A stretch of DNA of 64,000 nucleotides from Escherichia phage SholemSchwarzbard: sequence record PP925840.1. One strand, 5' to 3'. Shown here piece by piece: positions 30,087 through 31,657 of this stretch. The translations under genes were made by a program, and so were the position numbers. The notes under the pieces are model-generated. The model saw only the letters and a list, made by a program, of their open reading frames with translations. It made no database searches and had not been told where the DNA came from. Position 1 is the stretch's first letter, and the number at the start of each line of letters is the position of its first letter.

Positions 30087-30773
30087 TTAAAAATCGTGGG
30101 TAGAATCAGCTTCAAGAGCTACTACATAATTCGCGTGTTCACCTTCAAATTTAGCAGCACCCTGTTTACCTTTTGCCCAAAGCAGAAGTTTGTAATTTCC
30201 TGGTTGCATTTTCATATTTGCCATATTGATAATGAAATTAAATGTATTTTCACCATCATAATCACCAAGAGTCAAAGAATATTTAACACGGGTCAGAGCA
30301 GAATCTTCTACTTTATTAAAACCGTTAATTACGATTTTACCTTCTTTTACCGTGATAGCAATTGTATCAATTTGCAGACCACGAGATACACGCAGCAGTT
30401 GTTGAAGGTCTTCAGCTTTAATTTCAGTAACAACAGATGCTACCGGAAATGGAATTGGTTTATTAGGAGCAACTACTGTACTCGGATCGGCTGCTGGCCA
30501 AAAAATTGTTGAGCGGGCATCAGCAATTTTAATATTTCCATCTTCTGACTGGGAAATTTCTGCATCATCATTAACTAGCGACAGAATACCGAGAAAACCG
30601 TTCAAATCGTAAATTGCTACATCAAAATCAATAGTGTCAGAAATATTTGCTTCCGCATAAGTTGTACCATTAACTGCGCGAGTCATAATAAATTGACCGG
30701 ATTTAAGCATAATGCCAGAGTTAATAGTAGCGAAATTTTTCAAAATATTCAGTGTGTCTTTAGATAATTTCAT
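30087..30773 (-). CDS. 45: sliding clamp, 228 aa
   Basis: size and position. Confidence 0.9.
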   Translation of the reverse strand: MKLSKDTLNILKNFATINSGIMLKSGQFIMTRAVNGTTYAEANISDTIDFDVAIYDLNGFLGILSLVNDDAEISQSEDGNIKIADARSTIFWPAADPSTVVAPNKPIPFPVASVVTEIKAEDLQQLLRVSRGLQIDTIAITVKEGKIVINGFNKVEDSALTRVKYSLTLGDYDGENTFNFIINMANMKMQPGNYKLLLWAKGKQGAAKFEGEHANYVVALEADSTHDF

Positions 30774-31657
30774 TTCAATTTCCTATTTACATAATAGTTA
30801 GACCAGGACCGTACAGCACCCTGATAAGATTCGTCGTTAAACCCATTAGCTACTGCAATTTTACGAAATTTATTATAACTTGGTTTTCCGTAAGCATGCC
30901 ATAAAGATTTTAATTCATCTTCATGTTCAATCCAAGTTCCTCTAGCTTTAGATTTTCTAAATTTTGATTTGAATTCCGGTAAATTATTTCTAACAGTTGC
31001 TTGAATTGAAGCTCTCTGTCTTCTTTCAGCATTATTCCATAATTCTTTTTGAGATTTAGAAATTTTTGATCTTACACTTTCTGAATTCATTATATCACTA
31101 AACTTTTTAGCATAACTACAATCAAGATATTTCAATTTCATCTTATTTGAGAGTTTAAGCTTTTTCTCATCGGTCCAGTGATTCTTCATTGAATTAGATA
31201 TTTTGTATTTTACTTCAGAACTATGTTTGTAACCTTTACGAATACCGACATACTCAGGCGTAATTTCAGATTGCGAAAGCTTTACAATTTTTCCAGTTAA
31301 AACATTTTTATATGTTCCATATCCTTTAGCACCAATTAAAGTATTTTCATCTGCGTATGCTTTATTAAAATATTTTATATTACTTTTTGCTTTAACTTTT
31401 AATTGAAAAAATCTCTCCAATTTTCTTGGATCTAATATAGTTTCAGCTAAAATTTTGACGGTATATTTAGTGGTTTTAATAAGTTCAAAATATTCATCGC
31501 TATAACTCGATGACACGCTTCCAGTATAAATCTTTCCAGCTGAATCAATTATATTTGTTCCATCGAAAATTGCGTTAATTTTTGAACCTATATAATAACA
31601 CGGAAAAATATTTTTAGCTTCCCGCTCTGGAAAGCTAATAAGATATACTAAATTCAT
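30770..31657 (-). CDS. free-standing GIY-YIG-type homing endonuclease, 295 aa
   Basis: N-terminal LVYLISF...CYYIGS (GIY-YIG-like) and basic K/R/S/N-rich C-terminal repeats typical of Seg-like DNA-binding tails; ATGA overlaps with both neighbours. Confidence 0.6.
30770..31657 (-). mobile_element. homing endonuclease gene insertion between gene 45 and rpbA
   Basis: T4 has rpbA directly adjacent to 45; this ORF is wedged between them. Confidence 0.5.

Follow-up and report, generated by a model that had tools for sequence, protein, structure and literature searches.

The 64,000-nucleotide stretch of Escherichia phage SholemSchwarzbard analysed here (PP925840.1; hereafter the window) carries, between rpbA and the sliding-clamp gene 45, an open reading frame (ORF) that resembles the seg endonuclease genes of phage T4 and is referred to below as seg. 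Apart from this ORF, the gene order, 46 - 45.2 - rpbA - [ORF] - 45 - 44 - 62 - regA, is that of T4. Both ends of seg overlap its neighbors: the end of rpbA (...AAT AAA TGA) shares the ATGA at 31654-31657 with the seg start (ATG AAT TTA), and the end of seg (...TTG AAA TGA) shares the ATGA at 30770-30773 with the start of gene 45 (ATG AAA TTA). An earlier interpretation made from the letters alone (the sequence-only reading) had described this 295-codon frame, its two overlaps and its N-terminus (MNLVYLISF...PCYYIGSK), all of which agree exactly with the ORF list and the sequence. It had also stated, correctly, that T4 has no gene at this position; T4 has a 55-base-pair (bp) non-coding rpbA-45 spacer, in place of which seg stands in the window. 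The G+C content of seg is 28.9%, compared with 34.5% for the window, and lies below that of 99.7% of 888-nucleotide (nt) segments (the lowest 0.3%), which fits a foreign origin. Against the version of the gene in Salmonella phage GRNsp7, 14 codons differ synonymously and 7 non-synonymously (ratio of non-synonymous to synonymous substitution, dN/dS, of 0.12); 6 and 1 of these, respectively, fall in the nuclease domain. Its homologues, these codon changes, and its composition mark seg as a genuine gene rather than a chance frame, and it is under purifying selection; the possibility that it is a pseudogene was rejected on the dN/dS value.

The protein encoded by seg matches PHROG 655, "homing endonuclease" (E 4e-33), and its nuclease domain is 40% identical over 103 amino acids to that of T4 SegG (formerly 32.1; encoded between genes 59 and 32; E 1e-16), a match also recovered by tblastn against the T4 genome (E 3e-9). 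The two proteins have in common the signature P-x-YYIGSK ... Y-x-(G/S)-S ... E ... YFN. In comparison with I-TevI, Y5 (in MNLVY) aligns with Y6, Y22-I23-G24 corresponds to the second motif (Y17-V-G19), E81 aligns with E75 in both MAFFT and hhalign, and N98 (in YFNK) aligns with N90. All 124 relatives have Y5, Y22, G24, Y44, S47, and N98; conservation is 90% or more for K26 and E81, the latter being invariant in a core set of 15 sequences. When SegG, SegA, SegF, I-TevI, and I-TevII are aligned with the protein, the sole invariant columns after Met1 are Y22, G24, E81, and N98, equivalent to Y17, G19, E75, and N90 of I-TevI. An AlphaFold model based on 31 sequences, with predicted local distance difference test (pLDDT) values above 90 at residues 1-40 and 61-100, places the two tyrosine motifs on strands spanning residues 2-8 and 21-26 and predicts an alpha/beta fold of the GIY-YIG type. 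A Pfam scan at E values up to 10 revealed no HNH family (beta-beta-alpha-metal motif), and no similarity was found to T4 mobA, mobB, mobC, mobE, or I-TevIII. We conclude that the N-terminal domain is a GIY-YIG domain of the SegG sub-clade.

The remaining two thirds of the protein comprise 3 regions (Table 1). The beta module that follows the nuclease domain has the consensus YATYKH..TGK..RL...YVGVT and is conserved in the 124 relatives. The basic C-terminal part noted in the sequence-only reading is evident in residues 141-240, in which Lys and Arg make up 27% (isoelectric point 10.3, compared with 9.8 for the whole protein) and 6 helices are modeled. Pfam NUMOD3 is below threshold here (E 0.11) and is matched by 88 of the 124 family members; the family profile hits 1i3j, the DNA-binding domain of I-TevI, at its NUMOD3 helix (E 2e-4), and this helix is all that the profile reached in the PDB, the catalytic domain of I-TevI being missed. 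The C-terminal domain is 34% identical over 32 amino acids to the C-terminus of T4 SegA (BLASTP, E 2e-4). By these matches, the protein is a Seg-type mosaic: its catalytic domain is SegG-like, the helical linker that follows is basic and resembles NUMOD3, and its C-terminal domain is SegA-like.

Table 1. Features of the rpbA-45 region, in coordinates of the window.
Feature	Coordinates	Strand	Description	Basis
gene 45 (sliding clamp)	30087..30773	minus	228-aa ORF	T4 alignment
seg-like ORF	30770..31657	minus	295 aa + stop, ATG start	ORF list, sequence
C-terminal helical domain, SegA-like	30773..30937	minus	residues 241-295; presumed sequence-specific DNA-binding	helical in model
candidate MotA-dependent middle promoter in seg 3' end	30872..30898	minus	CATGCTTAC-N12-TATAAT; ~98 nt upstream of gene 45 ATG	
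basic helical region, degenerate NUMOD3-like repeats	30938..31237	minus	residues 141-240; presumed extended DNA-binding region	
three-stranded beta module, family-conserved	31238..31327	minus	residues 111-140, ending EYVGI	model secondary structure
N-terminal GIY-YIG nuclease domain	31343..31657	minus	residues 1 to ~105; Y5, Y22-I-G24, K26, Y44, S47, E81, N98	
rpbA	31654..32043	minus	129-aa ORF	T4 alignment
strict MotA-box/-10 match upstream of 45.2	32257..32284	minus	TATGCTTTA-N12-TATAAT	pattern scan

The distribution of seg is patchy. A 2.3-kilobase (kb) query across the rpbA-45 locus matched 625 records of Tequatrovirus-related phages, 24 of which contain the ORF, the others aligning by their flanks alone with 97-98% identity. 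Comparison of the junction across relatives thus bears out the view that this is a free-standing and sporadic gene, not universal in T-even phages: it is missing from T4 and from about 600 of the 625 relatives. Full-length homologues with 54-61% identity were found by tblastn at the same rpbA/45 position in Mosigvirus (AV114 and relatives) and in the Gaprivervirus VR26, with 10 of about 154 close Mosigvirus records carrying the gene, and a fourth, metagenomic lineage (locus L026, protein P0004) has a homologue there that overlaps both neighbors. The family comprises 265 cluster representatives by profile search, and 5 clusters in a set of 5.8 billion proteins match the protein. Some copies are broken: the homologue is split in two in AV115, JM17, and FL18, the loci being otherwise intact, and the ESh24 copy carries a +1 frameshift in a record marked UNVERIFIED. 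These copies could reflect either decay or sequencing errors. In being sporadic, faithful to its site, and sometimes decaying, the element behaves as homing endonuclease genes classically do. Another relative (P0005), 40% identical in the nuclease domain, was identified in metagenomic loci L029-L031 (positions 2501-3469 of L029); the gene splits uvsX, the flanking ORFs carrying the RecA_N and UvsX_C halves, and the downstream uvsX piece gives a weak intein-splicing match in Pfam.

Insert-bearing and insert-less phages differ in a polymorphism confined to about 55 nt of the rpbA/45 junction. In the insert-less phages DalCa, HY03, ES12, and T4, the rpbA 3' end is identical, the spacer varies by a single substitution (in HY03), and gene 45 begins with ATGAAACTGTCTAAAGATAC; the same 20 nt are present in the insert-less Mosigvirus GADS24. 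This start is therefore found in all 5 insert-less Tevenvirinae of the junction alignments, whereas it is recoded in each insert-bearing lineage examined. In the window, gene 45 differs from the 4 Tequatrovirus references at nt 7, 9, and 18 (30767, 30765, and 30756) by synonymous CTG>TTA and GAT>GAC changes, and the insert-bearing Tequatrovirus phages ESh24 and F13076 have the same allele. Codons 3-7 of gene 45 are recoded more heavily in AV114, VR26, and L026, where TCT AAA GAT becomes AGC/AGT, CGT, GAA/GAC and identity to insert-less relatives is regained by about nt 45; within Mosigvirus, AV114 is thus recoded in parallel when compared with the insert-less GADS24. On the other side of the insertion, rpbA of the window differs from the insert-less relatives examined in its last 6 nt (2 codons) and at 31666, 31669, 31673, 31696, and 31708, that is, 13, 16, 20, 43, and 55 nt from the rpbA stop. 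We propose from these alignments that the recognition or cleavage site may include the first codons of gene 45; characterized Seg enzymes target the neighboring gene and not the insertion point itself (review table, PMC2988022). Two insert-less phages, RPN226 and LH2, have a normal rpbA-45 spacer yet an insert-type gene 45 start, which may be either a resistant allele or the footprint of repair without transfer of seg. Alleles of this kind are to be expected should a break in gene 45 now and then be mended with no transfer of seg, or should resistant alleles spread independently. A third candidate, ERS-1, is 97% identical to RPN226, as is LH2. An exact-pattern scan of IMG/VR for the insert-type start recovered only distant T4-like phages with coincidentally the same start and was uninformative on linkage.

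Pattern scans revealed no sigma-70, MotA-type, or late-promoter match within 390 nt upstream of seg. The claim of the sequence-only reading that the gene has no promoter of its own is in line with this result, and its further claim of translational coupling is a plausible interpretation of the overlaps. The sole Shine-Dalgarno-like triplet near the seg ATG is a GAG 8 nt upstream, created by the GAT>GAG change at 31666. In the homologues, the start meets the rpbA stop as GTGA in VR26 and as ATGA in L026 and is separated from it by a 5-nt gap in AV114. The nearest MotA-type match ahead of seg lies upstream of 45.2 (Table 1); the strand has 5 such strict matches across the 64 kb, and this one is the likely source of a 45.2-rpbA-seg transcript, Pm45.2 being a named T4 middle promoter (PMC6024815).

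The insertion also bears on the expression of gene 45. The T4-type spacer carries ATTGCTTTA-N12-TAAAAT, a consensus MotA box with a -10 element, which is probably Pm45, a T4 middle promoter named in the literature, and the entire spacer is missing from the window. Within the 3' end of seg stands a candidate middle promoter (Table 1), one of 21 core MotA-type matches on the same strand in the 64 kb. At the same position, the Mosigvirus, Gaprivervirus, and L026 homologues contain (A/T)ATGCTTTA-N12-TATATT: these 3 lineages read ATTGCTTTA or AATGCTTTA, N12, and TATATT, the consensus, in a context where neighboring synonymous sites vary. Both the loss of the spacer match and the replacement-like motif had escaped the sequence-only reading. 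The segG gene harbors promoters of the essential gene 32 downstream of it, and segA, segE, mobB, and mobC likewise contain promoters of essential genes that follow them (PMC2988022); by analogy with these documented arrangements, the candidate promoter in the 3' end of seg is likely to serve gene 45. Three other candidate signals were not retained. A sigma-70 scan returned 11 sites compared with 12.4 in shuffled sequence, no more than chance, so no early promoter is claimed. A late promoter for gene 45 (TATAAATA) inside seg was represented by a single 7-of-8 match, TGTAAATA, which is not conserved. Finally, a terminator-like hairpin 20 nt inside seg (31638-31614, minus strand; 10-bp stem, 5-nt loop, and T-run) was dropped, because the 91-nt segment folds no better than shuffled sequences (z -0.9) and the homologues have no comparable stem by eye.

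Taken together, these observations indicate that seg is probably a free-standing homing endonuclease gene of the Seg type, from which we infer cleavage activity. In the mechanism that we envisage, seg would be transcribed as a promoter-less passenger on the 45.2-rpbA message, and ribosomes reinitiating at the rpbA stop would translate it weakly, through the ATGA overlap and the weak GAG Shine-Dalgarno element. During mixed infection, the enzyme would cut the rpbA/45 junction of a seg-less phage at or near the first codons of gene 45 (ATGAAACTGTCTAAAGATAC), and recombinational repair off the seg-bearing genome would transfer seg, with the markers next to it, to the recipient. Recoding at the 5' end of gene 45 and the changes at the 3' end of rpbA would shield the carrier itself. 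As the insertion removed the MotA-type match of the spacer, the motif in the 3' end of seg would probably drive middle transcription of the essential gene 45, in which case the loss of seg would be costly.

Several points weigh against this reading. The conserved helix-1 arginine of I-TevI, Arg27, has no alignable counterpart, so that of the GIY-YIG catalytic residues expected in the domain Tyr, Glu, and Asn can be aligned and Arg cannot. Pfam PF01541 is not matched even at E 10, Foldseek of the model against the PDB gave no match, and hhalign of the N-terminal domain against a four-sequence GIY-YIG reference is weak (probability 4.9%, E 0.008), its alignment doing no more than agree with the assignment of E81 and N98. 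At the junction, the flanking polymorphisms could represent hitch-hiking donor sequence rather than immunity changes, and the cuts of characterized Seg enzymes can lie hundreds of bp away from where the gene is inserted. As for the embedded promoter, the MotA box of the window, TGCTTAC, differs from the consensus at 2 positions, and the motif encodes the conserved W-x-A-L-G-K-P-x-Y-I in preferred AT-rich codons, which means that conservation of the motif adds no independent support. The Pfam result can be set beside that for T4 SegG and SegF, which are characterized enzymes and likewise fail PF01541; the Pfam model therefore under-covers the Seg clade.

The lack of an alignable Arg27 equivalent and of a Pfam GIY-YIG match would also be in keeping with a domesticated or catalytically dead remnant, kept for the promoter or ribosome-binding region of gene 45 or for a regulatory DNA-binding half. 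The promoter-like motif embedded in the 3' end of seg speaks for such a remnant, as do the frameshifted copies persisting in ESh24, AV115, JM17, and FL18 at otherwise intact loci, from which it appears that phages tolerate the loss of the protein. However, purifying selection extends across the whole ORF, including the nuclease domain, and Y5, Y22, G24, E81, and N98 are retained across the 124 relatives; SegG shares all of these features, down to the lack of an alignable Arg and the failure in Pfam, and yet is active, and a patchy distribution together with recoded flanks points to recent movement of the gene. We therefore consider a dead remnant unlikely. An active GIY-YIG nuclease serving mainly inter-phage competition or defense, by cutting foreign DNA at many sites, appears less likely still. 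The second-best structural match is PD-T4-3, a GIY-YIG restriction enzyme specific for DNA containing 5-hydroxymethylcytosine (5hmC), T4 EndoII is also a GIY-YIG enzyme, and SegB is reported to aid evasion of host defense (PMC13096335). Against this, homologues occupy exactly the rpbA/45 junction in 4 diverged lineages and the polymorphism falls within about 55 nt of it, a pattern that is predicted by site-specific homing and not by broad nuclease activity, and the domain architecture is that of Seg enzymes and not of restriction or defense enzymes. Finally, seg could encode a fast-evolving accessory protein with a chance GIY-YIG resemblance at its N-terminus, given that single-protein searches of Pfam, NCBIfam, and PDB sequences recovered no nuclease match and did not recognize this domain, which Foldseek also left unmatched. 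This last possibility is strongly disfavored and the least probable of the 3.

Building on the homing interpretation, we tentatively advance, at somewhat less than even chances, a wider scenario in which a single Seg lineage has tracked the rpbA/45 junction in at least 4 Tevenvirinae lineages by targeting near-invariant codons at the start of the clamp gene, replacing the MotA promoter of the clamp with one in its own coding sequence and so becoming hard to lose. If this scenario is true, the Seg lineage at rpbA/45 controls the middle-phase expression of gp45, which is needed for replication and late transcription.

The window was further compared by blastn with T4 coordinates 1-50000. The comparison confirmed the absence, claimed previously, of expected T4 mobile elements: the window has neither mobA and the gene 60 split nor segF, segA (with beta-gt), mobB, mobC, or the nrdD intron with I-TevII, and no other sequence in the 64 kb resembles the T4 homing endonucleases tested. 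With 6 T4 elements absent and seg present instead, the suggested independent turnover of homing elements is upheld. A single 606-aa ORF (2458-4278, minus strand) spans the split topoisomerase pair 39/60 of T4, and in place of T4 2806-3911 (mobA, 60.1, and the 50-nt bypass region) the window has about 50 nt. Approximately 950 bp (22254-23201), including a single 282-aa ORF (22344-23192, minus strand), replace segA and the beta-glucosyltransferase gene (T4 23555-25497). T4 16825-17725, including the dam methyltransferase gene, has no blastn counterpart at 16405-16426 of the window, and the phage may lack dam or have a very divergent replacement. Between gene 43 and regA, where T4 has a short spacer, about 220 bp (27923-28143) are without T4 counterpart.

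The gene itself is already in GenBank. It is nucleotide-identical to a coding sequence (CDS) of Shigella phage SHBML-50-1 (RefSeq NC_031085 gp056) annotated "homing endonuclease", and F13076_0130 and the PaulHMueller CDS are labeled "homing endonuclease" or "putative homing endonuclease" by automatic annotation; in most of the 24 carrier records, the label is "hypothetical protein", which is of practical relevance to phage genomics. A full-text literature search found no description of an endonuclease at the rpbA/45 site, and none is listed there in the table of T4 endonucleases given by the 2010 review (PMC2988022). Thus, seg is a new, uncharacterized member of a well-understood family and leaves the current understanding of Seg elements unchanged, while adding to the T-even homing endonuclease repertoire an insertion site and a putative target, the start of the sliding-clamp gene. 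The locus also offers a natural series, comprising 4 diverged alleles that share one site, copies with frameshifts, and phages that lack the insert but have a presumed resistant allele, useful for questions of conserved-target choice, carrier immunity, and the stabilization of selfish genes by embedded promoters.

Among the T4 systems, SegG resembles the seg product in more than the nuclease domain. Both genes lie directly upstream of an essential replication gene, and the segG ORF contains promoters of the downstream gene 32 (PMC2988022), a motif of similar kind being found in seg. The promoter-less, weakly translated layout of seg matches that reviewed for segC, segF, segG, and several mob genes, and the same review counts SegG among promoter-less cassettes and lists SegG and SegF as active GIY-YIG enzymes (PMC2988022). 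However, SegG has 210 amino acids, compared with 295, and the C-terminal two thirds are unrelated; together with the different locus, this indicates that seg is not the SegG orthologue, and the position at rpbA/45 rather than 59/32 suggests that its target differs from that of SegG. SegA and SegF share the overall layout of a GIY-YIG domain, a NUMOD3 region, and a C-terminal DNA-binding domain, and their C-terminal motif (L/I)W...GK(P/S)...K.A...GF...SY aligns with the seg product, although their nuclease domains are merely 16-18% identical to it and their insertion sites are uvsX/beta-gt and 56/soc, respectively; SegA, unlike the seg product, passes the Pfam GIY-YIG threshold. I-TevI of the td intron, the archetypal structure among GIY-YIG homing endonucleases, differs in organization, being intron-encoded and equipped with a zinc finger and a DNA-binding domain of its own, whereas seg is free-standing and its product has an insertion of about 20 residues after the YIG strand, ahead of the first helix. 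By these comparisons, seg is not an orthologue of any T4 seg gene examined but a further member of the Seg family.

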